Below, one piece after another: positions 1-17,380 of a DNA stretch of 64,000 nucleotides. This DNA comes from a bacterium (lineage in GTDB: Bacteria > Patescibacteriota > Minisyncoccia > Phycocordibacterales > UBA918). The notes beneath the pieces were generated by a model. The model was not told where the DNA came from. It searched no databases and saw nothing but the letters and a program-made list of their open reading frames with translations. Position 1 is the stretch's first letter; each line of letters starts with the position of its first letter. The translations under genes and the position numbers were made by a program. Location of the stretch: assembly GCA_043719295.1 (NCBI GenBank), contig JAYSUD010000005.1, forward strand, positions 31,651 to 95,650. The letters are read 5' to 3'.

Positions 1-165
1 CCGCATAAACCTGTATACAATGGTCTCACACTAAAAGAAAGCGTCAATAGAATTTGAATATCGTTATTTAGAGCCACCTCTGTGCATAACCTGTGTAAAA
101 GCACGTGTATAAGTATGGGTATACAAACAGGTATAACCGTATGGATAGCAAGACTTTTACAATCT

Positions 166-618: not shown

Positions 619-913
619 AATTATATTTGCGACGAAGTGATAAAACTAATAATCCATATTTCTCAATATCTTCTTTGGGCCAAAACTTTTCAGCTTCTTT
701 AGTATTAATGTGTTGCAAGATTTCAGTCTCAAGTTCCCGACCTGTTAATTCTGATGTGCCATCTTTTTGCTCTTTAAGTACCAGAGTATCTCCTGCCTCA
801 TAGTCAAAGTCAGCAAGTCGAATCTCGTATCGTTTTTGACCGTTAAGTATTGACTCAAAGTATTTTGATTGCACTTTCTTTTCTATACGTTTCATATCAA
901 CGTACGATATCAC
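611..913 (-). CDS. small ASCH/PUA-like domain protein (hypothetical)
   Basis: 100-aa ORF overlapping the downstream NUDIX gene by 8 bp; weak resemblance to the ASCH-like fold; the true start may be an internal Met. Confidence 0.35.
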   Translation of the reverse strand: MISYVDMKRIEKKVQSKYFESILNGQKRYEIRLADFDYEAGDTLVLKEQKDGTSELTGRELETEILQHINTKEAEKFWPKEDIEKYGLLVLSLRRKYNYD

Positions 914-949
914 AAAAAAGTTTTATAGAAAATGACTATGCGTTACTCC

Positions 950-1711: not shown

Positions 1712-1951
1712 GAAAGTATCGTAACATGCTGTTACTTGTTGTTCAGCATAAATTCACCTATAAAACATCATTTATGACTCATATCCACTCGAGATACTGA
1801 TACATACTAATCTATTCGGACTAGAAAACTGACTCATTTATGTTTATACTAGTTCTTGCCAGAGGTCTTACTACTCACTTCGAGGTATCGACATACCGGC
1901 AGTATCACTACAAATGAAGCGTAAATATTAATTTTTAATTTTGAGAACCAT

Positions 1952-2668
1952 ATGGAACCAGAACAAAAAAAAGCTGAAGACCAAGTGACTGAAGTTATTC
2001 ATGATGTTGAAGCTACAGTACCCGCTGTTGAGCCAGAAGTTAAAACAGTACCAGTAGCGCCTGCATATGTAAAAATCCCTGTAGCGACTATGAAGCGATA
2101 CGCGGTTGCGTTTTGTCTAGGTCTCTTGTTAGTTGTGCTGGCGTTTCTTTTTTCAAAAGGATACTTTATTGCAGCAACAGTAAATGGATCACCGGTGAGT
2201 CGCTTTGCAATAATTAGTGCACTTGAAAAACAAGGAGGTAAAGAAACACTCCAAGCAATCATCAACGAGCGCTTAGTTAAAGCTGAAATTAAAAAAAGTA
2301 ACGTCACACTTGAAGCAGGTGCTGTTGATGCACGTGTTGCACTCATTGAAGAACAAGTTAAGGGCCAAGGAGGAACACTTGCTGAAGCCCTAACTGCTGA
2401 AGGAATGACACTTACACAACTTACTGAACAAATTGAAACTCAATTGTTACTTGAAAAGGTACTTGAGGAGAAACTCAAAGTTACCGATGAAGAAGTTGCA
2501 ACATTTGTAACAGAAAACAGTATCCCTACACCTACTGAAGCTGAGAAAGAAGCGTTCGATGCAAAAGTACGAGAACAACTCAAACAACAAAAGTTTCAAG
2601 AAGAATCCCAAAAATGGATTGCTGAAGTAACTGCAGCTGCAAAGATTAAGTACTACGTGACATATTAG
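1952..2668 (+). CDS. SurA N-terminal-domain-like periplasmic chaperone (PpiD/PrsA-like, no obvious PPIase domain)
   Basis: N-terminal TM anchor after an acidic leader, then a helical SurA_N-like segment (INERLVKAEIKK...). Confidence 0.45.
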   Translation: MEPEQKKAEDQVTEVIHDVEATVPAVEPEVKTVPVAPAYVKIPVATMKRYAVAFCLGLLLVVLAFLFSKGYFIAATVNGSPVSRFAIISALEKQGGKETLQAIINERLVKAEIKKSNVTLEAGAVDARVALIEEQVKGQGGTLAEALTAEGMTLTQLTEQIETQLLLEKVLEEKLKVTDEEVATFVTENSIPTPTEAEKEAFDAKVREQLKQQKFQEESQKWIAEVTAAAKIKYYVTY

Positions 2669-2829
2669 GTGAACAGAATATATACAACAAACCCTACAAG
2701 TAACATTGTCGGGTTTTTGTTTTAAAGTCATAAAAAAACATGTTTCCAGACTACTTGCTCGTTGGATTTTTATTGAAAAGATATTGCGATATCTTTGGAT
2801 ATATTCCTCTGTGGTCACGAGTTACTAAC

Positions 2830-3006
2830 TATAATTGTTCGCTCCGCTCCAATTCTAGTAAGTACTCTCGACCCCGACTCGACTGTTTTCTCCTCTGGGG
2901 AGCAGGAGAAAACATGTCTCCGTCCATCACATCGACCCGTAAGTGACGCAGGTCACTTACTAGAACAGAAAGCACCCCTTCTTAAGAAGGGGTGCTTTCT
3001 GTTCTG
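2830..3006 (+). ncRNA. candidate small RNA (paralog A): TATAAT promoter, conserved 5' leader, covarying hairpin, terminator
   Basis: TATAAT at 2830-2835; GTTCGCTCCGCTCCAATTC leader; hairpin GTTTTCTCCT/AGGAGAAAAC masks an SD followed by ATG at 2914; second hairpin gtaagtgac/gtcacttac; long palindromic terminator 2963-3006; paralog at 32805-32975. Confidence 0.5.
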
Positions 3007-3121
3007 TCGATGTGAGCCTTCAGCTGATAGAACTCATCAAGTTTATTGTCCCGCAACGTTATTTTTTACTAAGTAACGAGAAATATTGACGACCCTTCTC
3101 GTGCCTCTGTTGCTAAATAAA

Positions 3122-3601
3122 TTAGCTGATTTCTTTAATACTAATACATATACCAAACTCGTCAGTGGTTCCTTCAATTGAGACGTCATATGATTCAGTG
3201 TAATCAATTCTTATGGGTGTATGTGACCAAATATCAATAAGAATTTCGTTTATTTTTTTCTGTATCCTTTCATCTAAAGGATAAAAGTTAGAAATACCTT
3301 CATCTCCCAGCAGAGTCTTAAGTTGGTTATGAAAGTCTGTGAATGAACCGTTAAACATGACGGTATTTCCAAAACCTGCATGAAACTTTTTTAATTCATC
3401 AGTAATAATTTTTGGTGCCTTTGAAATTTTTGTATGTAAAGTTAAATTACAGTAGAAGTTTAAGATACTATATTTTTCGGGATGGTTTCTTAATTCAAGG
3501 ATTTTCCTGACCCTTGAAAGTATATAAACAATATCTTCTTCAGTTACAGGAATGGACTTAAGTTTTTCGAGTAATTTATCTTTTATTTCTTTTTCACCCA
3601 T
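3122..3601 (-). CDS. hypothetical protein
   Basis: 159-aa ORF; its promoter region carries the GTGACA-N4-GTGACA direct repeat (3622-3638). Confidence 0.5.
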   Translation of the reverse strand: MGEKEIKDKLLEKLKSIPVTEEDIVYILSRVRKILELRNHPEKYSILNFYCNLTLHTKISKAPKIITDELKKFHAGFGNTVMFNGSFTDFHNQLKTLLGDEGISNFYPLDERIQKKINEILIDIWSHTPIRIDYTESYDVSIEGTTDEFGICISIKEIS

Positions 3602-3684
3602 AATGCTATTTTACAGCAAAAAGTGACAAAAGTGACACTTCTTCAAAAACTGGCAATTTTTCAAAAAAAGAGTAGATTTCCATT

Positions 3685-3999
3685 ATGTCAGGAGGACTCA
3701 AGGCGTTGGGAGTTGTTGGAGCAGGAGCATTACTAGCCCTTGGTATTTCAGCGTCTGAGCCTTCGCCTTCAATAACTAATACGCCCACTTCTGCAGTGAC
3801 TACAAGACCAGATATAAGCAAAACCAAGCCTGCGTCCACCTGTCACCCCAGTTATTCAGGCTGTCTTAAAATGAATGCCGGAGATTATGATTGTGCAAGT
3901 GGTTCAGGAAATGGACCTAACTATACAGGCTCAGTACAAGTCAAAGGTTCTGATCCTTTTGACCTAGATCGTGATAATGATGGATGGGGGTGCGAATAG
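3685..3999 (+). CDS. secreted Excalibur calcium-binding domain protein
   Basis: signal-peptide-like N-terminus; C-terminal DLDRDNDGWGCE matches the Excalibur DxDxDGxxCE signature. Confidence 0.7.
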   Translation: MSGGLKALGVVGAGALLALGISASEPSPSITNTPTSAVTTRPDISKTKPASTCHPSYSGCLKMNAGDYDCASGSGNGPNYTGSVQVKGSDPFDLDRDNDGWGCE

Positions 4000-4070
4000 G
4001 TCAAAATATCTCATGTTATAATGAGGAAAATAAGTATTTAACAAAAAGAGTCGATTTATAAATTTTATAT

Positions 4071-5042
4071 ATGACTAAAGATAGCTACATAAAAATTGGT
4101 CTAGTCCTGATAATTTTGATTGGTGTTCTATTTATCTACTTTTCTAAAGATAAAATTGAACACCTTGAACCACCACTATTGAAAGCAAGTTCTGTTTACG
4201 TAGGTAAAGAAGTCACTCTTTCTGGTGTTGCGTACCCAAATTCTCGAATAGCTGTTTATGTAAATGATTCTTTTGTTGATGAGTTTCAAGTATCTGATAA
4301 GGGACAATTTGAAAATAAGATTCAGTTAAGTACCGAAGGTGAAGTAAAAATAAAAGCTAAACAGCTATTCAAAAATTTAACAAGCGATTTTAGCGATTTA
4401 CTTTCTGTTCAAGTTGATTTAACTCCTCCTGATAAAAATTCACTTAAACTTACATCTGGTATTGCCGAAAAAACTCAGGAACAATTCCTCGAAATTAAGG
4501 GAAGCGTAAACCCTGGTGAGATACTTCAAGTTGGGACGAGTAATATCAACGTCAATCCCGATGGTTCATTTGAAGATAAAATTAAATTAGTTGAAGGATT
4601 AAATACGCTCGAATTTATTATTAAAGATAAAGTAGGAAATTCAGTGGTATCAAAAAATCAACAAATTTATGTAGATTCAATAGCTCCAAAAATTGTTACA
4701 AGTAGTTTTGAGTGTAGGTATAAAGATACTGACACGCTATCAACGCAAGAGAAAGTGTGTATAGAAATAGGTGATTGGTCAGGTTACTTAGACTCTTACA
4801 ACTCGTTACCAATCGTAGGTTCTGTAACAGGACAGATTAAATCTATTAGTGTGAATGAAAAAAGTGTGGAGTGGGATGAAAATAACGAGATATACCAAAG
4901 ACTTAATTTATATCTAAGCGGTGGTATTAATAAGTATAAAGTCATAGTCGAGGATATTTCAGGAAATGTATCTTCAGCATATATTGAAACAAGTGCTGAG
5001 CGGACTCAAGACACTATAAATCTAAACATTGATGATTATTAG
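4071..5042 (+). CDS. membrane-anchored protein with Ig-like beta repeats
   Basis: N-terminal TM helix followed by repeated beta-rich ~90-aa segments. Confidence 0.45.
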   Translation: MTKDSYIKIGLVLIILIGVLFIYFSKDKIEHLEPPLLKASSVYVGKEVTLSGVAYPNSRIAVYVNDSFVDEFQVSDKGQFENKIQLSTEGEVKIKAKQLFKNLTSDFSDLLSVQVDLTPPDKNSLKLTSGIAEKTQEQFLEIKGSVNPGEILQVGTSNINVNPDGSFEDKIKLVEGLNTLEFIIKDKVGNSVVSKNQQIYVDSIAPKIVTSSFECRYKDTDTLSTQEKVCIEIGDWSGYLDSYNSLPIVGSVTGQIKSISVNEKSVEWDENNEIYQRLNLYLSGGINKYKVIVEDISGNVSSAYIETSAERTQDTINLNIDDY

Positions 5043-5165
5043 TCTTTTTACAGAGCAAGGAAGGAAATGTGACAAAAGTGACACTTTTTAGCAGTAATAG
5101 TTACACGGGTCTGTAACTATTAAAACAAAATATCTCCTATATTGATAGGTTATAATATAGGGTAT

Positions 5166-5714
5166 ATGGTGGTCAAATCTACAAAAAACAACCTCCTCAC
5201 TATAAGCTCAAAAAACTTGAGTGATTTTTTGCACATTAGAGACGAAGTTGAATCGTATCTTAAACAAACACTGAAATTCTTTCCGCTTGATGAATTGATT
5301 GATAGCTATAAAAAAGCTGTTGCAAGTGCAGAGCTAATTAATAGACCAACATTTTATATTGAACCAATGTCCTTAGTTCAGACATTTGGTCCAAATGTGG
5401 TGGTGTCTCTATGTCTAGATATTAAACATCATGAACTTTATGAGTATGACAATCACAAGCACAGTCACTGTTTCAGTATAAAGGCTGACCAACAATTTAA
5501 ACTCCTCTACAAAATTTGTGAATCGAATGATGTTTATATACCTACTTCTGAACTAATGAAAGTTGCGGGTTATCGTAGTGTCGCATCTACTTACAAAGCA
5601 ATTGAGAAAATTAATAGTGTCGGGTATCAAATTGGTCTACCAGAGAGGTTATTGATTGGTTCTGAAGGTCAAGGTTATCGAATAAATCAAAATTACACTG
5701 TTACGGTCATCTAA
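5166..5714 (+). CDS. hypothetical protein, possible winged-helix DNA-binding C-terminus
   Basis: C-terminal ...SVGYQIGLPERLLIGSEGQGYRI resembles an OmpR-type wing; GTGACA direct repeat about 80 bp upstream; track start 5142 sits inside a promoter-like AT box, so the Met at 5166 is preferred. Confidence 0.4.
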   Translation: MVVKSTKNNLLTISSKNLSDFLHIRDEVESYLKQTLKFFPLDELIDSYKKAVASAELINRPTFYIEPMSLVQTFGPNVVVSLCLDIKHHELYEYDNHKHSHCFSIKADQQFKLLYKICESNDVYIPTSELMKVAGYRSVASTYKAIEKINSVGYQIGLPERLLIGSEGQGYRINQNYTVTVI

Positions 5715-5847
5715 ACTCTAGCTGGAGTGGAAAACCTCGCAAAAAGCGAGGTTTTCTTTTGCGTGTTCATAGCTGGACTCCAGCTGGAGTTGTTTAAATT
5801 AAGGTGTCTTAACCAGACAATATAGATATACCAGTAAAAATATATCT

Positions 5848-7113
5848 ATGGAAAAACTAGCTTGGACTACAGAAAAACGAAGTGTAATTGAACTCATACC
5901 ATACGAGAAAAACCCTCGAAAAATTAGTGAATACCAACTCAATAATCTAAAGAGGAGTTTTGAGAAATTTAATTTGGTAGAAATACCAGCTGTAGATTTA
6001 GATGGGAAAATAATCGCTGGGCACCAACGCTTAAAGGTAATGAAGTTACTTGGTCGTGAGAACGAAATTATTGACGTACGTGTTCCTAATCGTATATTGA
6101 CTGATGAAGAATACGAACAGTATTTACTCACCTCAAATGCAGTTACTGGTGAGTGGGATTTTGAACTACTGAAAGAATTTGAATTTGAGTTGTTGCAAGA
6201 TATAGGTTTTGACCAAAAAGTACTCGATGACATATGGGACACAACAGAAATAACTGAAAAAGAAAAAGTTACTGATGGTGGTGATATTAGTGTAGAAATA
6301 CAGACCAAGGTTGGTGACCTTATACAGCTCGGCAACCATAGACTGATATGTGGTGACTGTACTAACCTTGGTGTACTAAAAATACTTTGTGGCGATGAGC
6401 GATTGGATATGATTGCTAGTGACCCACCATATAATATTGACCTAGATTATAACGCTGGCATTGGTGGGAATCAGTCGTACGGTGGCAATGTAATTGATAA
6501 ACGAACCGATGAAGAGTATATAGATTTCCTACGCTCTAGTATGAAAGCGGCATTGTCAGTTGCAAAGCCAGATACACATGTTTTCTATTGGAATACTGAA
6601 CAGCACATCTGGATTTTACAGACACTATACCGAGAGCTTGGTATTGAAAACAAGAGGGTTTGTCTATGGATTAAAAATGGACACAATCCAACACCAGGTG
6701 TTGCTTTTAACAAATGCTATGAACCGTGTGTATATGGTACTAGGGGTAAGCCATTCCTGTCAGAGCATAATGAATATACTGAGATATTAAATACTGATAT
6801 AGAGAATGGAAATAAAGGCTTTAGCACCATAAATGTATGGCTTGAAAAACGTCTACCCTCAGCTGAGTATGAACACGCCACTGCCAAACCTGCTTCACTG
6901 CACGAAAGAGCAATTAAACGCTGTACACGAGCAAATGACATCATACTAGATTCATTTGGTGGATCTGGTAGCACACTCATTGCCGCTGAACAACTACATC
7001 GAAGAGCATTTCTGGTAGAGCTTGAACCTAGATTTTGTGACCTTATTTGCCAAAACTTTGAATCACTCACAGGCAAGAAACGTAAGTTAATCGGTAATTA
7101 TGCGAAAGTCTAA
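5848..7113 (+). CDS. ParB-like nuclease domain fused to an N6-adenine/N4-cytosine DNA methyltransferase (phage-type orphan MTase)
   Basis: N-terminal ParB/Srx-like region; DPPY motif (IASDPPYNIDLD); C-terminal FGGSGST AdoMet motif (beta-class order). Confidence 0.75.
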   Translation: MEKLAWTTEKRSVIELIPYEKNPRKISEYQLNNLKRSFEKFNLVEIPAVDLDGKIIAGHQRLKVMKLLGRENEIIDVRVPNRILTDEEYEQYLLTSNAVTGEWDFELLKEFEFELLQDIGFDQKVLDDIWDTTEITEKEKVTDGGDISVEIQTKVGDLIQLGNHRLICGDCTNLGVLKILCGDERLDMIASDPPYNIDLDYNAGIGGNQSYGGNVIDKRTDEEYIDFLRSSMKAALSVAKPDTHVFYWNTEQHIWILQTLYRELGIENKRVCLWIKNGHNPTPGVAFNKCYEPCVYGTRGKPFLSEHNEYTEILNTDIENGNKGFSTINVWLEKRLPSAEYEHATAKPASLHERAIKRCTRANDIILDSFGGSGSTLIAAEQLHRRAFLVELEPRFCDLICQNFESLTGKKRKLIGNYAKV

Positions 7114-7498
7114 AAAATTACTTAAGCAAATTATTGCTGAGCTTGAAAAAATGCCAAACAAGTCATATGTCTGTCAGAAGTTGGGTATCTCACGTCAAAC
7201 TCTTTACCGTTGGATAGAGGATGACCTTGATTTTTCTGATGGGGTTGAATTGGCTATTCGTATAGGCAACGAATCAATGAGTGACTTAGCTGAAAGTAAA
7301 CTTGTTGAAATGGTTAAAGAAGGTGATTTTAGGGCAGTCAGATATTTGCTTGATAACAAACACAAAGACTATAAACGACCTAGACTTCCAAATTGGCATC
7401 AGCAGGAAGACAAAAGACCGTCAGACAACAAAATTATGTTTGTAGATTTTGGGGGCGGTTCAGATCTAGAAGATGATCCTGGTTTTTCTATTTCATAG
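7100..7498 (+). CDS. phage terminase small-subunit-like HTH protein
   Basis: KLGISRQTLYRWIEDD HTH, then ...LVEMVKEGDFRAVRYLLDNKHKDYK as in the TerS family; overlaps the MTase stop. Confidence 0.55.
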   Translation: MRKSKKLLKQIIAELEKMPNKSYVCQKLGISRQTLYRWIEDDLDFSDGVELAIRIGNESMSDLAESKLVEMVKEGDFRAVRYLLDNKHKDYKRPRLPNWHQQEDKRPSDNKIMFVDFGGGSDLEDDPGFSIS

Positions 7499-7538
7499 AA
7501 AATTGAGGGATCTATCTTGATTGCAAAACTAAATTTGA

Positions 7539-8114
7539 CTAACGGACAATGTCTATAATAACCTCGCCACCAGTCCAAAGACCTCCATTAAACTGAAATT
7601 GTAGTCCAGTCGAATCTTTTGGAATCTCAAATCCTACCCACCCCGTCCGCTTACTATTAGCAATGATGGCTCCGTCAAGACGATTACTCATATTTTCCAT
7701 TGATTTTCCTGTAACTGCTACTTGATAGCTGTTACCTTCAGCGTCTCTGATAAACATCTGACCCAGAGTGGTGACATACTGTTGTGATGAATCTTTATTC
7801 TCAATAGTAATATTTAAATCAATCCATTCATTACCTTCACTTGGCTTATTATATTGACCAGCTTTTGAAAATGTAACTTCATTTACTGTAATAACTGATT
7901 TACCCAACTGAACACTTTCTCCAACTTTATAAGTAGTTCGTTTTTCTTCTTTAGTTTCACTTTCACTTATTTCACTAGTACCGTTTGTATTAACTGCTTG
8001 TGGTTTAGGTGTACTGTCTCCTGATCCGATAATGATAAGTACGATAATTGTGACCGCCCACACCCACTTTCTTTTATAAAACGGCTTCTTAGCTACTGGT
8101 ATATTTGTTTCCAT
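7539..8114 (-). CDS. DUF4352-family membrane-anchored protein
   Basis: TM helix then a beta domain with YKVGESVQLGKSVITVNEV... typical of DUF4352; track ORF (to 8219) runs upstream into a repeat region, internal Met at 8114 preferred. Confidence 0.55.
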   Translation of the reverse strand: METNIPVAKKPFYKRKWVWAVTIIVLIIIGSGDSTPKPQAVNTNGTSEISESETKEEKRTTYKVGESVQLGKSVITVNEVTFSKAGQYNKPSEGNEWIDLNITIENKDSSQQYVTTLGQMFIRDAEGNSYQVAVTGKSMENMSNRLDGAIIANSKRTGWVGFEIPKDSTGLQFQFNGGLWTGGEVIIDIVR

Positions 8115-8453
8115 AATTAATGCTTGATAGGACTTAATAATTCGTGGCGGATATACAAAAAGCCCGCCACGGGTAGAGGGCGAACCCTCTCGTACCAGTT
8201 TCCCGATACGGCCTATCAAGCAACCCCATGACGGGTTTTTTATGCTTGATAGGACTTTTCACCATGCTCCAGATATTCTCTGAAGTTTAGGCTACTTCTA
8301 AATATTCGATTCTACGAGAACAATAATAGCAGATTTTACTGCCTATTTCACTCTATCGCATGTTTGTTCTTTTGCTAAGGCTCAAACACGAGTATGTGAT
8401 GAATATGAAGTTCTGCATAGACTATGCATCATAAATGGTTCTGTCATTAATTA

Positions 8454-9776
8454 ATGATGGAAACGAACGCAATTGGGCGTATACCCAGCAATATCTCAAT
8501 CACCGAGACCCGTATCAGATATTGCCTATATGCTCGAAAATCGACTGAATCAGACGAACAGCAAGCATTATCTATAGATTCTCAAGTAAAGGAAATGGGT
8601 GCTATTGCAGAGCGTTTAAACCTCAATGTTGTCAGTATTAAAAGAGAGTCTCATTCAGCAAAGGAATCGGGACAACGTCCTGTTTTCAAAGAACTACTTG
8701 AAGAAGTCAGAAAAGGAACGTATGACGGTATTCTCACATGGGCGGCAGACCGACTGAGTAGAAATGCTGGGGATCTAGGTTCGCTCGTAGATTTAATGGA
8801 TCAGAAGCGGCTTATCCATATTCAGACCTATGGACAGACCTTTTCTAATTCGCCAAACGAAAAGTTTCTCTTGATGATTCTGTGTTCACAAGCAAAACTT
8901 GAGAACGACAACAAAAGTCAAAACGTGAAGCGAGGGTTACGGGCGAGAGTAGAAATGGGTTTATGGCCGTGTAGACCGCCAACTGGGTACAGTAAGTATA
9001 AACGAATGGATCAAAAGTGTGAGTCAGTTATAGATATCGAACGTGCACCGATCATTAAACAAATGTTTGAGAAAGTTGGTAACGACGGCTGGAGTGGAAG
9101 AAAGCTCTATCATTGGCTAAAAGACGATATTAATTTCAAAACTGAGAATAATATGCACTTAAGTCTTGGTAACTTATATCGAATACTTTCAAACCATTTC
9201 TACTATGGGAGGTTTGAATTCCCAAAACAATCTGGACTTTGGTACAACGGAGCGCATGAACCTCTTATTTCCAAAGAGCTTTTTGATTTAGTTCAGTCCC
9301 GTATTAAAAGTCAGATACTTGAGCCACGTTCTGCTCATAAAGAATTTGCGTTTACAAAAATCATGTCCTGTGGACTGTGTGGTTCTGGTATTACCGCAGA
9401 CGAAAAATTTAAGCATCAAATGAACGGTAATACTCACCGTTATGTCTACTATAAATGTACCCGTACCAAAGACAGTAACTGCTCATGTGGTTTTATCAAT
9501 GAAGATGATCTAATTATTCAACTTCAAGACCTAATGAATGACCTTGATATACAAATAGTTCCGATGAGAGAGCAGATCGCTAACGATTTGAGGAAATTCA
9601 AGAAGTTTGAACAAATGATACTCGGTACTAAAACACCAGTAGTAGTGAAAGATATTGATATTCGTAATTACGCCAAATTTATTCTTCAAGAGGGTGATAT
9701 TGAAGAAAAACGTGTTTTTCTAGGGTGCTTAAAAAATAAAATAATCTTAGAAAATAAAAGAATATGTCTAGCATAG
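8454..9776 (+). mobile_element. large serine recombinase (integrase)
   Basis: N-terminal resolvase catalytic domain (YARKSTESDEQ...DSQ...RLSRN), recombinase domain and C-terminal Cys-rich zinc ribbon (CGLCGS...YYKC). Confidence 0.8.
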
Positions 9777-9814
9777 GGTTCTACTTTTACTCTTCGTAAT
9801 AAATTTTGTCGTAT

Positions 9815-11695
9815 TCATATGTCGAGTACATGAATATCATTCGAAGGGAAGAAACCTTTTGTTTCAATTGCAGATCGCATCATTTCAGTATCTTCTGTAA
9901 ATATTACGACAGCCAAATCTTGGACGGCGCGCGAACAGCAAACATAGAATAATCTACGAGTCCTGTCCACCACAGAATCTCTGCCATTTTGAATATTATC
10001 AATATCCGTTTCAGAAAGCGGGACCATATCGAAATATTTACCATAGGAAAAAGATGTCGTCGTACTTTCTTCATCATCGACTACTACCAAAACTCTATCA
10101 AACTCCGCCCCCTTAATCCCTTGTTGTGTTGCAAAGGGTGATTGTTCTTCAATATAAGTCCTATAGCTAAGCACTTGATTTGCACTACAGTTAAGAAATC
10201 TAAGCACTGAGTTTTCAGGGGCGTTTTCGGTAAACGATTCCCTAGAAATAAATTGTGAAAGTGGTTCAAAAAAACGTTCATCTAAAGCTAGAAGATTGTT
10301 CTTTTGAACAAAGTTAATCACATCACCAATTAGGATTTGACTTCTATCTGCAAACATTTCTCCTAGAGCAGTAAGGTCATCATTTAATGAAGCTAACTCA
10401 GTTGCAAGATTATTTGAAAAAATATAATCAGGATCAAGCCGAGGACAACTATTTCTCAGTATAGACATTACCTTGAAATCATCATTATCCGTTCTAGCTT
10501 GTAATAGCGGAATTATATACTGAATGAATGGTCTAACGACCCAAGCTGTCCCATCAATAAGTCCGCTCTTTAAGCTTTCTGGAGATTTGTCATTCAATGC
10601 ACTATAGATGTCAGGGAAACCAAGTCTGGAAGCTGCGATTCTGTGAACTACTACGAGCATTCTGACATCTCCTTCCTTTGTGTCACTCAACCAGAGTGGG
10701 TCATTATTCTGTTGAGCTAACCATGCTCTAACGCTCGTCAATCCCTCGGTTCGTTTATCTGAAGGTAAAATGAACGCTCTTGCCGTGCCTTGGATGGATG
10801 TTTGTACGCCATCAATCTCAATGGTTTTACCGCGAATTTGATGCAATCCATCACCCTCAGCTCTGATATTATTTATAACATTAAGCACATTGACTGGACA
10901 TCTAAAGTTTTCTGGTTTTTGAATTGTTAGCCACCCAACCTCTTCTGGTATCTCACCAATTCCATCCATATAAATCTTTTGCATTGGATCTCCAAAAAAA
11001 CCTAAGCAAAACCCAGTAGACGCACTTGAGGTTATTTTTTTTAAGGCTTTGATAAAATCAGGTATAGTGTCCTGACTTTCATCTACAAAGATGACAGGGA
11101 AGCGTTGCGCTATAACTTTTTGCAAAATGCCATGACTTGATATCAAGTCGGTGCCAATTTTCAGTATGTCACTATGCCCCAAGATTCCGTTTGCATAATC
11201 ACTGCCAGTACCATACCTAAAGCTTTTAACTATTTTAACAAGTTCAACTTGTTCTCTGTACCTCTCAATATTTAAACGCTCCTTTAATTTTGTGGCTTCG
11301 TGTGTCCTTGGTTTGATAATTTTTTCTTCAGATTCCAATATTTTTTCATCTATCCTTTGAAGAACCCAAGTCCTCAAGTCATCCTGAAACGGTCTAATAA
11401 CAATCCATAAGAAACTGTGAATTGTTGATACGTGAAAAAGTGTATCATGACTTACGTCACCATAAATTTCTTTCACAGCAACATCTGTATATGTGATACA
11501 AGCTATTTGCTGTGCTTGTCTACGCAGATGATCACCTCTCATTTCTGATAAATAATTTAAAGCCTTAACCAACGATGTTGTTTTACCAGAACCTGCCCCA
11601 GCTGTCATGAGAAAATGACACAACCCATCGTCATTTAAACGGGAGTGAAGTTCTATATCGGCAGGAGTGTCGGGGTTATCAATACGGCTTGTCAT
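9815..11695 (-). CDS. UvrD/Rep-like superfamily-1 helicase (GajB-like)
   Basis: Walker A TAGAGSGKTTSL, DE/Q motifs; start overlaps the stop of the upstream OLD-family gene (operon). Confidence 0.7.
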   Translation of the reverse strand: MTSRIDNPDTPADIELHSRLNDDGLCHFLMTAGAGSGKTTSLVKALNYLSEMRGDHLRRQAQQIACITYTDVAVKEIYGDVSHDTLFHVSTIHSFLWIVIRPFQDDLRTWVLQRIDEKILESEEKIIKPRTHEATKLKERLNIERYREQVELVKIVKSFRYGTGSDYANGILGHSDILKIGTDLISSHGILQKVIAQRFPVIFVDESQDTIPDFIKALKKITSSASTGFCLGFFGDPMQKIYMDGIGEIPEEVGWLTIQKPENFRCPVNVLNVINNIRAEGDGLHQIRGKTIEIDGVQTSIQGTARAFILPSDKRTEGLTSVRAWLAQQNNDPLWLSDTKEGDVRMLVVVHRIAASRLGFPDIYSALNDKSPESLKSGLIDGTAWVVRPFIQYIIPLLQARTDNDDFKVMSILRNSCPRLDPDYIFSNNLATELASLNDDLTALGEMFADRSQILIGDVINFVQKNNLLALDERFFEPLSQFISRESFTENAPENSVLRFLNCSANQVLSYRTYIEEQSPFATQQGIKGAEFDRVLVVVDDEESTTTSFSYGKYFDMVPLSETDIDNIQNGRDSVVDRTRRLFYVCCSRAVQDLAVVIFTEDTEMMRSAIETKGFFPSNDIHVLDI

Positions 11696-11699
11696 GTCG

Positions 11700-13961
11700 C
11701 TAAGTTACTTGCACACTTATAATAGTCTCACTCAGTACTTCAGTATCTCCGGTGCCTGAGGAGTTCTCTGTGGTAGGGGTAATTTGCATTTCCAACCACT
11801 TCAAACCTTCTGAAATATAATCTGGAACAATCCAGGCATCCTTATCTTTTGTTAGAAGTGCTAAAGCGAAATCGGTTTTTTTGAAGTTCTTGCCGCTGAT
11901 TCGTTTATATAAGCGATCCGTTATAACTTCGAGTGTTGGTGAATCGCTAGACTTTACTCTTAACTTAAGTTCTTTATTAGCCATTTCTTGACTCCAAGAT
12001 AAATTTTGATATGCAAAGGCTTCTTCTAGTGTGCGTCCAGTGCGTTCAATATTCTTAGTATCACGAATGATATTTATTTGCGTTTGATAACATACACGTA
12101 CTGGAGCACATCCTGTGTCACGAACTTGCTCTTTTTCTTCAGAAGTTGACTGCATAAGGTCAATGATATTTCTTTTTTTAGGCAACCACTGAATTAAAGT
12201 CTGATTTGAAGTGACAGCATTTTTTGTTTCGACAGAGCAGCTGCTACCTCTTTTTTTCTCACCCTCCTCGACCTCGTCAATATCTTCAAATTCATCTAAG
12301 TCAGTGTCTTCGTCTGTTACATTTTGTTCTACATCAGGGTCAGATCCAATGACACTATCAAGGTCAGTGATAACAAGAGTCGTTATCCCTAAAAAATCTA
12401 TGAGTGACTGAAAACGGAAACTAAAAGCTCCGCCAATTTCTAATACACTTAAATAAGTTTGTTTAAGAAGCGGTGCACTTTTCTCGATCATCAGTGGCGT
12501 TAATAATCTCTCAACATTTCCCTCAACCAGGACTGCTGCATCAGCAAAGAAGAGATCGCAGTGAGTTAACTTTAGATATCTTTCCAAAAAATCTCGCGTT
12601 GTCTCTGGTGTCTTCGTATAGTATTCAGACAGATTAAGTACAGAAGTATACTGAGAGGCTCCGCTATCTTCTCGCCGGAAATATCTAATAGGTTGAAAAC
12701 CTCTCTCGTAAAGAATGTGAGATGAATGGGTAGTTATAACTATTTGACTAGAATAAGCATCTGAGTCAGGCCCGTTAATGGACAATATGTCCAATATTTT
12801 GTTTACAAAAACCTGTTGCAACTGGTTATGTAAGTGTGCCTCTGGTTCCTCGATAAAAACAAGGTGTAAAGGCGGTCGTTTCACTTCAATATCCATCCAC
12901 TGGTTATGTAAGTCCAGTAATTCCACAACCATATAAATTAAGTTTTTAAAACCTAAGCCATTGTATTTGTCTGGAAGCGTCACGTCGTCACCTAAAGCGT
13001 AATGGACTTGTGTGCCGTCCTGAACATTCATTAATGTTGCTGGATTAAGATCTGAAAGTATCTTGATACTTGGGTTTTTCAACCCAGGATATCCTAGCTT
13101 AGAGAGCTTTTTCATTGTCGACGAGAACACATCTTGTAAATGAACGTTCATCAATCTCTCAGATTCAAAAAGAGCTTTCATGGCCTCATAATCATGACCT
13201 CGTTTCTCTAGATTGCGCTTATAAAATCTACTTAAGTGTCGAGAAAGCTCTTCTGATCTATTGCCGCTAGAAGTGTCTGATAGATGACGTTGTGCTTGCA
13301 GAAAGTCAATTTTGATGAGGGAAGAGAGGATATCTCTACCTGATCTGTTTTTACCAGCAGAGCCTTTGTCTGAAGTGATCTCTAATGGTTCATAAGTACC
13401 AATTTCGGATAGACTTATATCAAACTTTGATCTGTCGAGGACATAATACCTAAATTCGTATTCCCGCTTTAGCTCTTTAGTAAGGAAATCTTTTAGTGTC
13501 TTTGGAAACAAAACTACGGAATCTTCTTCAGCAGTTTGTTGTCCATTTTGAGCTATAGATTGTGCTTCTCTGAACCTAGATAGAGTTAACTGTGAGTCCG
13601 TCGGTGAGAAAGATACTCTTATCCCAACCTGATTTTCTCTCCAAGCAAGACTTGGTAACAAATCAATTACTCGATGTAAGTCAGAATCAGTAACACCAAA
13701 CCAGAAATCTATTGAGATTTCGGGAAGTTCAGAGTCAGCAATACCATTGGCAAAGGCCTCAATATTCGCCCAAGTAGATGCATTAAAATCATGTAGACTA
13801 AGTTTTTCACGAGATGCAGAAGCAAAGAGTTGCAAAGCCTGAACCACAGATGTCTTACCGCTATTGTTTGACCCGACGAAGATAGATATATCTTTTTCCA
13901 AATCTATAACGACGTCTTTTAGGCGTCTGAAGTTCTTTATGTGTAAGGAGTCTAATTTCAT
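11700..13961 (-). CDS. OLD-family ATP-dependent endonuclease, AAA_15/21 ATPase + Toprim (GajA-like)
   Basis: N-terminal MKLDSLHIKNFRRLKD...GSNNSGKTS; Walker B/D-loop LHLVFIEEPEAHLH; Toprim LVEGNVE and ITDLDS motifs. Confidence 0.75.
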   Translation of the reverse strand: MKLDSLHIKNFRRLKDVVIDLEKDISIFVGSNNSGKTSVVQALQLFASASREKLSLHDFNASTWANIEAFANGIADSELPEISIDFWFGVTDSDLHRVIDLLPSLAWRENQVGIRVSFSPTDSQLTLSRFREAQSIAQNGQQTAEEDSVVLFPKTLKDFLTKELKREYEFRYYVLDRSKFDISLSEIGTYEPLEITSDKGSAGKNRSGRDILSSLIKIDFLQAQRHLSDTSSGNRSEELSRHLSRFYKRNLEKRGHDYEAMKALFESERLMNVHLQDVFSSTMKKLSKLGYPGLKNPSIKILSDLNPATLMNVQDGTQVHYALGDDVTLPDKYNGLGFKNLIYMVVELLDLHNQWMDIEVKRPPLHLVFIEEPEAHLHNQLQQVFVNKILDILSINGPDSDAYSSQIVITTHSSHILYERGFQPIRYFRREDSGASQYTSVLNLSEYYTKTPETTRDFLERYLKLTHCDLFFADAAVLVEGNVERLLTPLMIEKSAPLLKQTYLSVLEIGGAFSFRFQSLIDFLGITTLVITDLDSVIGSDPDVEQNVTDEDTDLDEFEDIDEVEEGEKKRGSSCSVETKNAVTSNQTLIQWLPKKRNIIDLMQSTSEEKEQVRDTGCAPVRVCYQTQINIIRDTKNIERTGRTLEEAFAYQNLSWSQEMANKELKLRVKSSDSPTLEVITDRLYKRISGKNFKKTDFALALLTKDKDAWIVPDYISEGLKWLEMQITPTTENSSGTGDTEVLSETIISVQVT

Positions 13962-14069
13962 GCAGTTAAGCTAAGAGTATCACTAATTCAAATAGGTTGA
14001 AATACATACCTAATACAAAAATAACCTCAAATGAGGCTATTTTTGTATGCTTCTCGTGCTAGCACGAAT

Positions 14070-14143
14070 TGGTGATCCCACGGAGAATCGAACTCCGATT
14101 TCCAGGATGAAAACCTGATGTCCTAACCGTTAGACGATGGGAC
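14070..14143 (-). tRNA. tRNA-Glu (UUC), CCA encoded
   Basis: cloverleaf GGTCCCA...anticodon loop TTTTCAT...TGGGATCACCA read on the minus strand. Confidence 0.85.
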
Positions 14144-14256
14144 CAAACGTTATGTATAACGCGAGCAAAATCATACCAAAAAACACAGAAAAAGCTAGTC
14201 TTGTACACAAAAGGGCAATCTCGGAAGATTGCCCCCTATCACCGTTTTACTTGCTC

Positions 14257-15005: not shown

Positions 15006-16820
15006 CTATTCCACAGTCACACTCTTCGCAAGATTTCGTGGTCTGTCAACATTAAGGCCTTTTGCGAGGCCAACATAATACGAAAAGAGGTGTAGGTATA
15101 CGGTAGTGACAATTGGTTGCACAATTCTGTGCACTTTTGGCATGTAGACCACATCTTGTGCAAGTTCTTTGATATGCATATCGCCTTCTGTAGCAAAAGC
15201 TAAAATAGGTGCCTTACGCGCTTTTACTTCCTCAATATTTGAAATCATTTTCTCATAGACATCATCCTGAGGACAGAGTGCTATAATTGGAAACTCTGTA
15301 TCGAGCATGGCAATTGGACCGTGTTTAAGTTCACCTCCTGCATACGCTTCTGCATGGATGTATGCTACTTCTTTTAGTTTAAGTGACCCCTCGTGTGCAA
15401 TTGGAGTGTGGAATTTTCTCCCGATGAAAATTGCATCACGATGATGGGCAAACTTTTCTGCAATTGCTTTTATTTCATCTGCTTGCGTAAGTACTTTTTT
15501 TAGAACTGAAGGCAGTCCTTCAAGAGCTTTTGCTATTTCAATTCCCTCTTCTTGTTTCATTCCTCGTTCACGCCCAATTAAAAGTGTGAGTAATACAAAG
15601 ACGGTTAACTGTGAAATGAACGCTTTAGTTGATGCAACCGCAATCTCAGGGCCTGCATGGTTATGAACGCCAGCAGTTGTTTCTCTGGCGATTGTTGAAC
15701 CCACCGTATTGATAATTCCAAGCGTTAAGAGACCCATTTCTTTTGCAGAACGAATTGACGCCAACGTATCTGCTGTTTCTCCTGACTGTGATACTGCAAG
15801 TACGGCACTTTTTGGATCGGGAATATTTCGCTTGTATCGATACTCACTTGCAAGCTCAACTTCAGTAGGCAATCCTGCATACTCCTCAAGTAAGTACCGT
15901 CCAACGCAACCTGCATAGTACGCTGAACCACACCCGACAATTTGTAATCGATTGAGTGCTGCAATGTGCGTTAATACATTTTCAAGACCTCCAAGCTTTG
16001 CTCTACCCTTCTCTACCTGTAGACGCCCTCTTATTGTATTTAAAATAACTTCAGGTGCCTCATTGATTTCCTTAAGCATGAAGTGTTCGTACCCTTGTTT
16101 CTGTACTGATTCAAAATCCCACGCTACTTTTTCAGGCACTTTTTCTTTCTTTTCTCCAGACATCGAGAGGACACTGTAGCTACGAGCTGTAATAACGGCA
16201 ATTTCACCATCATCAAGGTACACAACGTCTTTGGTGTGCGCTAAGAGTGCCGACGGGTCGGACGAAACGAAATGGCCATCTTTACCAAGTCCGAGCACAA
16301 TAGGACTTCCCATCCGGGCTACTACAATTTCCCCAGGATTATGTTCACTCTGTACTGCAATACCATAAGTACCGCGAACCATACGTAACGCATCTAAAAC
16401 TGCTTGTTTGAGATTCCCTTTGTTTAAGGTACCGATAAGTTTTGCAAGGACTTCCGTGTCTGTTTGTGAAGTAAAGGTGATGCCTTGGGCTATGAGTCCT
16501 TCTTTAATTTCTCGATAATTTTCAATAATGCCGTTGTGTACGAGCCAAACTCCTCCTGACATATCACAGTGTGGATGTGCATTTTTTTCAGTTGGCTCAC
16601 CGTGAGTTGCCCAGCGGGTGTGTGCAATTCCTGAAGTCCCTCCAATGGTAGTAGTGATTTTTGCTGCAAGATTATCGATGGGACCAACGGCCTTCAGCGC
16701 TCCATAGCCGGGAACAAAAATCCCTGCAGAATCATAGCCTCGGTACTCAAGGGTTCGAAGTCCTTCAATTAAAAGCGGCTCAGCTGTCCGCGTCCCTACA
16801 TATCCAAAAATTCCACACAT
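15006..16820 (-). CDS. glmS: glutamine--fructose-6-phosphate aminotransferase
   Basis: MCGIFGYVG N-terminal nucleophile, two SIS domains, 604 aa. Confidence 0.9.
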   Translation of the reverse strand: MCGIFGYVGTRTAEPLLIEGLRTLEYRGYDSAGIFVPGYGALKAVGPIDNLAAKITTTIGGTSGIAHTRWATHGEPTEKNAHPHCDMSGGVWLVHNGIIENYREIKEGLIAQGITFTSQTDTEVLAKLIGTLNKGNLKQAVLDALRMVRGTYGIAVQSEHNPGEIVVARMGSPIVLGLGKDGHFVSSDPSALLAHTKDVVYLDDGEIAVITARSYSVLSMSGEKKEKVPEKVAWDFESVQKQGYEHFMLKEINEAPEVILNTIRGRLQVEKGRAKLGGLENVLTHIAALNRLQIVGCGSAYYAGCVGRYLLEEYAGLPTEVELASEYRYKRNIPDPKSAVLAVSQSGETADTLASIRSAKEMGLLTLGIINTVGSTIARETTAGVHNHAGPEIAVASTKAFISQLTVFVLLTLLIGRERGMKQEEGIEIAKALEGLPSVLKKVLTQADEIKAIAEKFAHHRDAIFIGRKFHTPIAHEGSLKLKEVAYIHAEAYAGGELKHGPIAMLDTEFPIIALCPQDDVYEKMISNIEEVKARKAPILAFATEGDMHIKELAQDVVYMPKVHRIVQPIVTTVYLHLFSYYVGLAKGLNVDRPRNLAKSVTVE

Positions 16821-16909
16821 AGTAGTAAAGAAAAATAATAATGAAGAAAGAAATAAGTCTTTCTACTATATAATACAATGAATAATCATTAATAGTTATA
16901 TCAATTTTT

Positions 16910-17380
16910 ATGGCTCACATTCATGAATTAATTGACTGGACCACCGGTGTGTATATCGTCCACGACAATAAAGTACTTATTCGTCTTCATGACAAAATTA
17001 AGAAATGGATTCACGTTGGGGGGCATGTTGAACTTGATGAAGACCCAGTTAGAGCTGCAATCCGAGAATGTAAAGAAGAAGTTGGACTTGATATCACCAT
17101 TTATGACAGTGGTATACGACCCTTAGAAATAGAAGCAGAATCTTTCATGAGATATCTACCCCCTCCAGCACATATGAATATTCATCATGTCGGAGGAACA
17201 CAGCATCAGCATATCGACCTTATTTACTACGCATCAAGTTTGACAAATGTCCTTGTCTTAGAAAAAGAAGACGACGAATGCATATGGTTAACAAAAGCAG
17301 AACTAGAAGCTCACCCTGATATTCACCCTCAAATTAAATTTTATGCATTAGGTGCACTTGATACACTCTCTATAAAATAG
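16910..17380 (+). CDS. NUDIX hydrolase
   Basis: Nudix box GGHVELDEDPVRAAIRECKEEVGL. Confidence 0.7.
   Translation: MAHIHELIDWTTGVYIVHDNKVLIRLHDKIKKWIHVGGHVELDEDPVRAAIRECKEEVGLDITIYDSGIRPLEIEAESFMRYLPPPAHMNIHHVGGTQHQHIDLIYYASSLTNVLVLEKEDDECIWLTKAELEAHPDIHPQIKFYALGALDTLSIK

Follow-up and report, generated by a model that had tools for sequence, protein, structure and literature searches.

Genes and features at the locus

The window, the whole 64,000-nucleotide stretch of DNA analyzed in this study, contains a large serine recombinase gene (8454-9776, forward strand) that faces two reverse-strand genes, gajB (9815-11695) and gajA (11700-13961). Beyond these lies tRNA-Glu(UUC) (14070-14144, reverse strand), identified by ARAGORN and Rfam. 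An earlier note on this DNA had given the same places for these four genes. It had also put the pair downstream of the recombinase; however, recombinase and pair are convergent, so this description does not apply in the operon sense. The gajA start is 108 bp from the 3′ end of the tRNA, in agreement with the distance of about 100 bp proposed before, and the suggested close coupling of the two genes is borne out, as they are adjacent and co-oriented, with the TAG stop of gajA and the ATG of gajB 4 nt apart.

The 753-aa gajA product, an OLD-family ABC ATPase with a Toprim nuclease domain, matched the PADLOC GajA profile PDLC00095 (E 1.4e-254), its residues 1-734 aligning to profile positions 1-740 of 752; in Pfam it matched AAA_15 (4e-53) and OLD-like_TOPRIM (3.9e-15). 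The 626-aa gajB product, an SF1 UvrD-like helicase, matched the GajB profile PDLC00143 (E 3.5e-227; residues 1-624 to positions 1-630 of 632) as well as UvrD-helicase and AAA_19 in Pfam. These matches agree with the earlier reading of the genes as a Gabija or class-2 OLD pair. The ATPase motifs of GajA (Walker A GSNNSGKTS and FIEEPEAHLH) and the helicase motifs of GajB (GAGSGKT, DESQD, GDPMQKIY, KGAEFD and YVCCSRA) were present in the translations. In a phmmer alignment to 8wy4, the residues E480, G510, D533 and D535 of the Toprim domain corresponded to E379, G409, D432 and D434 of BcGajA, the invariant Glu, invariant Gly and DxD that make up a complete Toprim active site in that enzyme (PMC10781630). 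The OLD gene of the window keeps all four catalytic residues, which were invariant in 54 homologs.

Both proteins had been described as notably longer than canonical Gabija proteins, with an acidic insert as a further peculiarity. The acidic stretch DEDTDLDEFEDIDEVEEGEKK is indeed present after the Toprim DxD motif, but the same loop occurs in more than 6,800 homologs of 725-785 aa, and the matching PADLOC models have lengths of 752 and 632 positions, so that neither the length nor the insert, a family trait, is unusual. The AF2 monomer model of GajA was mediocre (pLDDT 68, pTM 0.46); its best fold matches were GajA 8x5i and 8u7i, and the best PDB matches of GajB were GajB chains. PcrA, UvrD and Rep were rejected as identities of the helicase, since its scores were far under the NCBIfam equivalog cut-offs (24.7 against 911 bits for pcrA, 27.5 against 1144 for uvrD and 36.3 against 951 for rep); the earlier view that it is not a dedicated repair helicase is sustained. 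Judged by profiles and motifs, the pair is predicted to be a complete, standard Gabija/class-2 OLD system.

To the left of the recombinase, a ParB-N domain fused to an N6/N4 DNA methyltransferase of orphan, phage type is encoded on the forward strand (5848-7113; Pfam N6_N4_Mtase 4e-27; phrog_498 7e-84; ParB-like phrogs). It is followed by a small-terminase-like helix-turn-helix protein of 132 aa (7100-7498, forward strand; HTH_Tnp_1_2, a weak match to Sf6_terminase, and terminase-small phrogs). At the related loci L156, L159 and L083, a large terminase (phrog_38, 2.5e-78) comes after the terS homolog; no large terminase was found in the window. A gene for a membrane-anchored DUF4352 protein of 191 aa (7539-8114, reverse strand, ATG at 8114-8112) was also called, with the same length, on an identical Logan contig. 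The matches of its product to DUF4352 (1e-23), phrog_806 and, weakly, Sie phrogs mark it as a putative "moron" of the superinfection-exclusion type.

Further left, the ORF list shows a 159-aa ORF (3122-3601, reverse strand), which had no match in Pfam, PHROG or NCBIfam and no meaningful one in PADLOC, and three ORFs of 104, 323 and 190 aa (3685-5714, forward strand). The 323-aa protein has Ig-like/glucodextranase-B surface-protein domains, and the 190-aa ORF is common to the window and the related element L225, which matches window positions 5065-5850 at 72%. A motif, AAAAGTGACAAAAGTGACAC, is present in two copies that are 92% identical (3619-3643 and 5065-5089) and recurs in L070, L020, L024 and L225; it may serve the element as an operator or promoter box. 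The stretch 3016-5064 was without homologs in the related elements fetched and could be a separate acquisition.

Extent and junctions of the element

The glmS-tRNA-Glu locus of all relatives fetched lacked the 8.1-14.1 kb segment, so the segment is not conserved among them. In the closest empty site, L010, which belongs to a different species with a GlmS 73% identical, the host segment corresponding to window positions 2812-2998 joins the tRNA-Glu 3′ end directly (CCTGTGTGA followed by TCCCACGG), and the window reads GTCGATGTGA followed by GCCTTCAG at its junction. The genes glmS and VIT1 are 2.6 kb apart in L010 and 13.3 kb apart in the window. At L003, a different insert of 780 bp occupies the same TGTGA point. 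The left junction, the probable attL, is placed at 3008-3018, with a GTGA core at 3012-3015, the conserved host segment to its left and element DNA from about 3016. This comparison, together with conserved synteny, sets the element at about 11.06 kb rather than the 6 kb of the minimal islet envisaged earlier.

The right terminus (14013-14075) consists of a hairpin (14013-14048) and a putative P′ half-site, GCTTCTCGTGCTAGCACGAATTGGTGA, and ends in a second GTGA core (14072-14075). It is 94% identical over 63 nt to the terminus of L223, an element with a recombinase at least 90% identical, other cargo and tRNA-Glu(CUC) as its target; identity is complete in the final 31 nt as far as GGTGA, and the tRNA sequence beyond differs. 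Similar termini were also found in L225, L160 and L158. As judged by the junction compared with L010, the last bases of tRNA-Glu(UUC), the integration target, and the encoded CCA come from the element end. Insertion most likely took place through a recombinase-mediated crossover within the short core GTGA/UCAC in the last tRNA bases; with no more than 4 bp in the shared core, the crossover cannot be placed exactly.

We saw no excision product or excised circle, no attP and no truly isogenic empty site. The ends of the identical Logan contig, at 2976 and 14101, are accounted for by a 48-nt palindrome and shared tRNA k-mers and are not evidence of mobility. Matches to GlmS and its synteny were confined to Patescibacteria MAGs, with identity of up to 82%. 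The host is a CPR bacterium, Paceibacteria-like, and the element probably stems from a family of small temperate phage-like elements.

The LOOT RNA

A LOOT RNA (Rfam RF03000) occupies 8175-8293 on the reverse strand (cmscan 89.6 bits versus a gathering score of 46.4; E 1.1e-15; model positions 1-121 of 121). LOOT and the recombinase gene are oriented away from each other, 161 nt apart, and the DUF4352 gene follows on the LOOT strand. The previously reported 16-nt direct repeat ATGCTTGATAGGACTT is real (8120-8135 and 8242-8257), a repeat of that length being reached in none of 200 shuffles. One copy is the 5′ arm of P2, the long stem of LOOT, and the other (8120-8135, reverse strand) lies right at the start of the following gene, 5 nt before the DUF4352 ATG. 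This second copy is able to form a duplex with the P2 3′ arm (8210-8221), computed at -16.9 kcal/mol for the cognate versus -6.3 for non-cognate pairs. A P2 5′-arm copy at the start codon, differing in sequence from locus to locus, was present in 9-10 of 18 LOOT loci.

In addition, a conserved box, ACCCGUGGCGGGCUUUUUGU (8155-8174, reverse strand), lies directly 3′ of the Rfam-defined LOOT and is complementary to apical P2 (8221-8244). The cognate duplex of box and P2 apex was computed at -27.1 kcal/mol and ranked top in 14 of the 18 loci (permutation p<1e-4). A purpose-built model detected LOOT in 17 of 69 related recombinase loci, and a same-strand ORF began 7-84 nt after it in all 18 instances examined. 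This ORF, the P2 apex-box pairing and the P2-arm copy at the start codon suggest a cis-acting leader. LOOT would form the 5′ leader of the DUF4352 gene, and its long stem could alternatively pair with its own copy at the translation start. We tentatively propose, at somewhat less than even chances, that LOOT is a cis-acting leader of about 145-180 nt and not a free-standing sRNA, and that it gates a second accessory slot, holding superinfection-exclusion or defense morons, in a family of phage-like serine-integrase elements that target tRNAs. Control of the plugged-in cargo would be exerted through the P2 apex-3′ box helix and a switch of the P2 3′ arm between the 5′ arm and the start-codon copy. 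Some members of this element family reside in CPR bacteria.

The serine recombinase and related elements

The recombinase, a protein of 440 aa and the integrase of the element, contains Resolvase (PF00239), Recombinase (PF07508) and Zn_ribbon_recom (PF13408) domains, with the catalytic motif YARKS at residues 26-30 and the serine at residue 30. Its best NCBIfam matches were CcrB and XisF, both far below the equivalog cut-offs. Recombinases 42-69% identical to it were found on 69 viral contigs, and the ParB-methyltransferase and terS module was upstream of the recombinase in 51-52 of these 69 loci. Of 60 viral loci that were scanned for tRNAs, 18 had one on the opposite strand, 0.12-5.6 kb downstream of the recombinase; L223 and L225 also have an opposite-strand tRNA after the recombinase. 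Targeting of the 3′ ends of tRNA genes is a habit usually linked to tyrosine integrases.

The backbone of the element comprises the ParB-methyltransferase, the small-terminase-like protein, the LOOT-led accessory gene and the large serine recombinase. Between the recombinase and the conserved right terminus is a variable cargo slot, which holds the complete gajA-gajB pair in this element. The slot contains type II restriction-modification genes and an SNF2 helicase in L160, a methyltransferase and a PtuB-like protein in L194, PDC-S53 in L172, a PDC-S05-like gene in L225, a PDC-S11-like gene in L198 and genes of no known kind in L223.

Nature of the island

The reading we favor, and consider quite probable, is a phage-like integrative element of about 11.06 kb (approximately 3016-14075) that sits in a Patescibacteria chromosome at the tRNA-Glu 3′ end, with a complete Gabija system in its cargo slot and LOOT as the leader of the DUF4352 gene. 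The integrative character assigned to the locus by the earlier note stands, as a large serine recombinase does lie beside tRNA-Glu; the size and the att junction that it gave do not. It had proposed a 6-kb cassette of recombinase and Gabija whose left att junction was a 118-bp segment with the 16-bp repeats (8123-8258). Although the repeats are non-random and the recombinase and Gabija genes adjoin the tRNA, this segment is a full-length LOOT RNA, and the same repeat relation recurs at other LOOT loci in unrelated sequence, always tied to the downstream start codon. Furthermore, the genes left of the segment, ParB-methyltransferase and terS, keep their synteny with the recombinase in some 50 related elements, the empty-site comparison puts the left end near 3016, and serine recombinases cross over within about 2 bp, without 16-bp duplications around a 118-bp segment. 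The 6-kb cassette is thus scarcely credible. We likewise hold it to be very improbable that the OLD nuclease and helicase serve the host as a housekeeping module for DNA repair and just happen to lie beside an unrelated integrase. Pairs of class-2 OLD and helicase genes were described before any defense role was known (PMC10781630), and in another Paceibacteria MAG a 75%-identical pair is flanked by secA on one side and housekeeping genes on the other and is not accompanied by a recombinase. However, the pair of the window is missing at the same locus in all relatives fetched and is located inside conserved element termini, in a slot that is filled by restriction-modification genes and PDC candidates in sister elements. 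In addition, both proteins match defense-system profiles end to end, and the helicase scores, as given above, are far from those of PcrA, UvrD and Rep.

Within the favored reading of an 11-kb phage-like element, the island might be a phage satellite (PICI-like) rather than a decayed prophage, packaged by a hijacked helper phage of the L156/L159 type. A small terminase is kept without large terminase or capsid genes, and the window, L103/L165, L155, L160 and L225 all lack a large terminase and share methyltransferase, terS, a LOOT-led accessory gene and a recombinase, whereas relatives L156, L159 and L083 have one between terS and the recombinase. The size of about 11 kb and the apparently intact recombinase are also in line with a satellite. 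However, no replication, repressor or capsid-remodeling genes were recognized among the four ORFs without assigned function, no helper phage is known, and loss of the large terminase could be plain decay or module exchange. On balance, we regard a satellite as rather unlikely, though far less so than the 6-kb cassette or the repair module.

Significance

Gabija is one of the commonest defense systems, and its identification here, being one more instance, is mainly of annotation value. The system is ordinary and its context is of a well-known kind. Of more interest are two by-products, the lineage of the host and the design of the LOOT leader. CPR bacteria, which cannot be grown on their own, have very small genomes and are presumed to hold few defenses. 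Here, a complete Gabija reaches a CPR bacterium on a small phage-derived element whose sister elements exchange cargo at an integrase-proximal slot, which could be mined for new defense genes in an under-sampled lineage. A serine-integrase family with apparent tRNA 3′-end specificity could interest those who catalog integrases, and the LOOT observations offer a testable role and an extended structure for an Rfam motif without function.

Comparison with known systems

As in the Gabija of Bacillus cereus VD045, in which GajA is a class-2 OLD nuclease, two genes are present with gajA upstream of gajB, and an ABC ATPase and Toprim protein with E, G and DxD has an SF1 UvrD-like partner. GajA of the window is about 175 aa longer, however, with an acidic loop after DxD, and GajB is about 130 aa longer. 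Direct similarity to the Bacillus proteins is remote (phmmer E ~1e-7; 12-15% identity in fold alignments), so that any mechanism is carried over a large distance. The pair of the window falls in a distinct long-form subfamily, a very large one with members in Proteobacteria, Bacteroidota, Myxococcota and Paceibacteria, of which we know of no experimentally tested member. A 4:4 supramolecular complex of GajA and GajB with a nuclease gated by nucleotides, and protection against phages, would be expected of a Gabija system. By homology to the B. cereus system, GajA and GajB of the window would form a hetero-oligomer. GajB would sense DNA ends and hydrolyze (d)ATP/(d)GTP; once nucleotide inhibition of the GajA ABC ATPase domain was lifted, the Toprim nuclease would cut phage DNA.

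The LOOT of the window resembles the Rfam motif, typed there as an sRNA, in being a full-length, high-scoring match with all four hairpins; the P2 apex-3′ box pairing and the start-codon copy are not part of the 121-position model. With the large serine recombinases of phages and SCC (CcrB, XisF and phiC31-type), the recombinase shares the order of Resolvase, Recombinase and zinc-ribbon domains and an integrase role at the element end, whereas it is short, falls far under the NCBIfam equivalog cut-offs and targets tRNA 3′ ends. Prophages and satellites are known to carry defense cargo beside their integrase or att site, examples being the P2/P4 hotspots and integrase-proximal defense genes of mycobacteriophages. 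The elements described here are alike in having a variable slot between integrase gene and attachment site with differing defense systems in related elements; they differ in that the integrase is a large serine recombinase acting at tRNA 3′ ends and in that the hosts are at least partly CPR bacteria.

Boundaries of the integrative element

Close relatives of the GlmS encoded at 15006-16820 (identity up to 82%) were found only in Patescibacteria/CPR MAGs, labelled Paceibacteria, Nomurabacteria, Kaiserbacteria or 'Saccharibacteria', and synteny with these MAGs extended to both sides of the locus. Looking up the exact GlmS protein sequence gave no match. The gene order in relatives was glmS, tRNA-Glu, a conserved segment of ~200 nt (2807-3015 in the window) and the VIT1 gene. 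The distance between glmS and VIT1 was 2.6 kb in the relative L010, compared to 13.3 kb in the window. L010 represents an empty site: its host segment and the 3' end of the tRNA are directly joined (...CCTGTGTGA|TCCCACGG). The window has two junctions, ...GTCGATGTGA|GCCTTCAG on the left (core at 3012-3015) and ...AATTGGTGA|TCCCACGG on the right (core at 14072-14075). By this comparison, the element is placed at about 3016-14075 (11.06 kb). The earlier note had described a serine-integrase islet abutting tRNA-Glu, which we also observed; however, the size of ~6 kb that it proposed was too small, since the empty site in L010 puts the left end at ~3016. The same insertion point is occupied in L003, from the closest GTDB relative, in which tRNA-Glu and the conserved segment are separated by a different insert of ~780 bp with an ORF (16560-17342), located exactly at the TGTGA point. 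This insert may be a remnant of another element. The opposite end of the island was searched for a long directly repeated copy of the 3' part of the tRNA; none was found, in keeping with what a serine integrase would be expected to leave.

The right terminus was defined independently by comparison with that of L223, a related locus whose recombinase belongs to the same 90% cluster as the window recombinase and is separated from a tRNA-Glu(CUC) by 2.6 kb and two genes of no assigned function. This terminus (a hairpin and GCTTCTCGTGCTAGCACGAATTGGTGA) was 94% identical over 63 nt in the window and L223; the last 31 nt up to GGTGA were identical, and the tRNA sequences diverged beyond this point. 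Similar termini were present in L225, L160 and L158. The terminus common to the window and L223 places the Gabija genes inside the element. We also considered an identical Logan contig (11,126 bp, window 2976-14101) as an element-sized unit and rejected it because its ends are ordinary assembly-graph break points: the left end falls on the final k-mer of a perfect palindrome of 48 nt (2959-3006) and the right end on the first k-mer wholly within the tRNA.

Other features were observed at this locus. The segment beside tRNA-Glu is structured in several Patescibacteria (window 2807-3015, plus strand; L010 14027-14210; L003 17342-17534; L070 13511-13583), with a covarying outer stem (ATCACAtcGAC/GTCgaTGTGA vs caGG/CCtg and acGGC/GCCgt) and a terminator hairpin common to it and the tRNA. 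It matched no Rfam family, and an E-value scan gave only hairpin-driven miRNA-type noise. The segment may be an undescribed ncRNA, and a 93-aa ORF overlapping it (2795-3076) is probably spurious. In two other Patescibacteria (L004 15472-17049 and L008 9855-11441), tRNA-Glu adjoins another, larger serine recombinase (525-528 aa, 31-36% identical), whose ORF extends at its 3' end into the tRNA gene; thus, tRNA-Glu serves at least two recombinase lineages as a hot spot. In addition, L070 contains a 23-nt fragment (13398-13420) identical to the anticodon-arm region of tRNA-Glu, which adjoins a 64%-identical recombinase and lies ~200 nt from the intact tRNA-Glu (13622-13695). This fragment is probably a scar of an earlier integration or excision.

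A long-form Gabija pair

ORF calling and a tRNA search located the genes at the positions reported in the earlier note. The recombinase (440 aa, 8454-9776, plus strand; Pfam Resolvase, Recombinase and Zn_ribbon_recom) is convergent with the two minus-strand genes that follow it after a gap of 38 bp, gajB (626 aa, 9815-11695; UvrD-helicase and AAA_19) and gajA (753 aa, 11700-13961; AAA_15 and OLD-like_TOPRIM). The spacer between gajA and gajB reads TAG-CGAC-ATG, and tRNA-Glu(UUC) is located at 14070-14144 on the minus strand. The G+C content across the region was not distinctive.

Both proteins matched PADLOC Gabija profiles from end to end: GajA matched PDLC00095 (752 positions, E 1.4e-254) and GajB matched PDLC00143 (632 positions, E 3.5e-227). 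Judged by these matches, the OLD/helicase pair is an ordinary, already catalogued long form of Gabija, as previously assigned. A search of 5.8 billion proteins yielded more than 6,800 GajA homologues below 1e-20, the best 120 of which were 713-784 aa long and 55-75% identical; their sources included Paceibacteria, Gammaproteobacteria, Alphaproteobacteria, Nitrosomonas, Aquimarina and Archangium. In all 12 aligned homologues, an acidic loop, variable in length, occupied the position of DEDTDLDEFEDIDEVEEGEKK, just past the Toprim DxD motif. Given these loops, the similar lengths and the equally long PADLOC profiles, the extra length and acidic insert, which had been taken for peculiarities of this pair, are family traits.

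The solved Gabija proteins of Bacillus cereus were remotely similar to the window pair (phmmer E ~1e-7). Nevertheless, the Toprim active-site residues of BcGajA, E379, G409, D432 and D434 (PMC10781630), aligned with E480, G510, D533 and D535 of the window protein, all of which were invariant in 54 homologues. The GajA translation also contains a Walker A motif (GSNNSGKTS) and an IEEPEAHLH motif, and that of GajB contains GAGSGKT, DESQD, GDPMQKIY, KGAEFD and YVCCSRA. An AlphaFold2 model of GajA was of moderate quality (pLDDT 68); its top PDB fold matches were the GajA chains 8x5i and 8u7i (E ~7e-13), followed by a Thermus class-1 OLD nuclease and then retron Eco8 OLD, so that the model separates GajA from class-1 and retron OLD proteins by the rank order of matches alone. 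A dedicated repair helicase was considered for GajB and rejected, since it scored 25-37 bits against equivalog models of PcrA, UvrD and Rep that require more than 900 bits. In addition, gajA and gajB were absent from the glmS-tRNA-Glu locus in all fetched GTDB relatives. The helicase scores, the Toprim residues and the locus in relatives thus gave no grounds for refuting the earlier reading. In another Paceibacteria MAG, a 75%-identical Gabija pair is flanked by secA and housekeeping genes and is not accompanied by a recombinase, implying that the two genes also move alone as a unit.

Cargo slot and element family

The slot between the recombinase gene and the tRNA was variable and often contained defence genes. 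Gabija occupies it in the window; the slots of related loci carried a Type II restriction enzyme, a C5 methyltransferase and an SNF2 helicase (L160), an 880-aa methyltransferase and a PtuB-like protein (L194), PDC-S53 (L172, 1354 bits), a PDC-S05-like protein (L225), a PDC-S11-like protein (L198) or genes of no assigned function (L223, L192 and L201). PADLOC searches with the other ORFs of the island gave no match except for the methyltransferase. Slot genes without a PADLOC or Pfam match (L103 1762-3549, L223 11310-13837, L192 9276-10490 and L201 9567-10790) are candidate new defence genes.

When a profile built from seven recombinases was run against viral contigs, 69 loci were retrieved, with recombinases 42-69% identical. 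A ParB-methyltransferase and a small-terminase-like gene (terS) were located upstream on the same strand in 51-52 of these loci. A large terminase (phrog_38, E down to 2.5e-78) was present between terS and the recombinase in L156, L159 and L083; in the window, L103/L165, L155, L160 and L225, this position was occupied instead by an accessory gene led by LOOT, a structured RNA (Rfam RF03000). The 11-kb element could be a decayed prophage or a satellite that retains the small terminase alone. Among 60 loci scanned for tRNAs, 18 had a tRNA gene on the opposite strand 0.12-5.6 kb after the recombinase (Glu, Ser, Gln, Asp, Asn, Arg or Trp). Two different family members were found 16-37 kb apart on several single viral contigs, including IMG/VR contigs 3300014205_009253 (L159/L162), 3300000970_000154 (L168/L169), 3300042286_000458 (L184/L195), 3300032737_000190 (L191/L200) and 3300009873_002614 (L220/L221). 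These pairs suggest tandem arrays of related elements, and their spacing suggests a typical intact element size of 16-37 kb.

Two other features of the family were observed. An intergenic motif, AAAAGTGACAAAAGTGACAC, recurs in this and related elements (window 3619-3643 and 5065-5089; L070 16645-16675; L020 6792-6820; L225 6719-6745; L024 14678-14735), and probably serves a regulator encoded by the element as its operator or promoter box. In L223 (GCA_043735715.1, JAYTDW010000006.1), the region immediately upstream of the recombinase, which is at least 90% identical to that of the window, is a polymorphic-toxin locus (1-9848) encoding an RHS/SpvB protein of at least 2277 aa, a Laminin_G protein, and Imm33-like and Barstar immunity proteins. 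The methyltransferase and terS module is missing from this position, indicating that the recombinase travels with very different partners.

LOOT RNA as a proposed leader

The earlier note had interpreted a 118-bp structured segment flanked by 16-bp direct repeats as a possible att junction. This segment is a full-length LOOT RNA (8293..8175, minus strand; 89.6 bits vs the Rfam gathering score of 46.4) and not a recombination junction. A gap of 161 nt separates it from the divergently oriented recombinase gene, and its 3' end is 61 nt upstream of the ATG of a DUF4352 gene (7539-8114). Of the two repeats, the second (8242-8257) forms the 5' arm of P2, the long stem of LOOT, and the first (8120-8135) lies 5 nt upstream of the DUF4352 ATG. 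With the att site and the islet size revised, the earlier description was largely correct, including its assignment of Gabija.

A covariance model built from the window copy detected LOOT in 17 of the 69 recombinase loci and in L225 (9724-9856). In eight viral loci, LOOT and the recombinase gene were divergently oriented, with LOOT 140-200 nt upstream, and the same arrangement was present in L225 (~145 nt). When viral contigs were searched for LOOT by pattern, 69 matches were obtained, only three of which were real, and the recombinase-anchored search was far more productive. In all 18 instances examined (the window and 17 viral loci), a same-strand ORF began 7-84 nt after LOOT. These ORFs were mutually unrelated; their products included membrane-anchored proteins (DUF4352 and others), a trypsin-like protein, a zinc-ribbon plus tRNA_anti-like protein, and proteins 353 and 570 aa long. 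A σ70-type promoter scan found fewer sites than in shuffled sequences (27 vs 36), and therefore a promoter-like site 30 nt upstream of LOOT carries little weight.

Two additional putative helices were identified. In 9-10 of the 18 instances, the start codon was closely preceded by a copy of the locus's own P2 5' arm, whose sequence varies between loci. Duplexes of the P2 3' arm (8210-8221 in the window) with the cognate start region averaged -9.8 kcal/mol, compared to -5.4 for all pairings, and the cognate pairing ranked first in seven loci (permutation p<1e-4). The MFE fold of a 200-nt window transcript adopts this alternative pairing. In addition, the P2 apex (8221-8244 in the window) was complementary over 17-21 bp to a conserved box (...GGCGGGCUUUUUGU; 8155-8174 in the window), directly past the Rfam 3' end of LOOT, in 18/18 instances; cognate duplexes averaged -25.7 kcal/mol vs -14.8 overall and ranked first in 14 of the 18 loci (permutation p<1e-4). 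The two helices cross and so may be alternatives to each other. These pairings suggest that LOOT acts in cis as a leader whose helices are mutually exclusive and which extends beyond the Rfam model.

Proposed function of the element

The CPR host, the family of tRNA-targeting serine integrases with a defence slot and the design of the LOOT leader are worth a further look. We propose that the recombinase integrated the element via a crossover within UCAC at the last bases of the tRNA, such that the element end would restore the tRNA 3' end and provide an encoded CCA. The DUF4352 protein might be a surface 'moron' expressed from the LOOT leader. By analogy, the Gabija pair would work as the B. 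cereus system does (PMC8136825, 10.1101/2023.05.02.539174, PMC10781630 and PMC10822852): GajA would be a nucleotide-gated DNA endonuclease, GajB would hydrolyse (d)ATP/(d)GTP and act as a sensor of DNA ends, and the two proteins would assemble as a GajA4-GajB4 complex.
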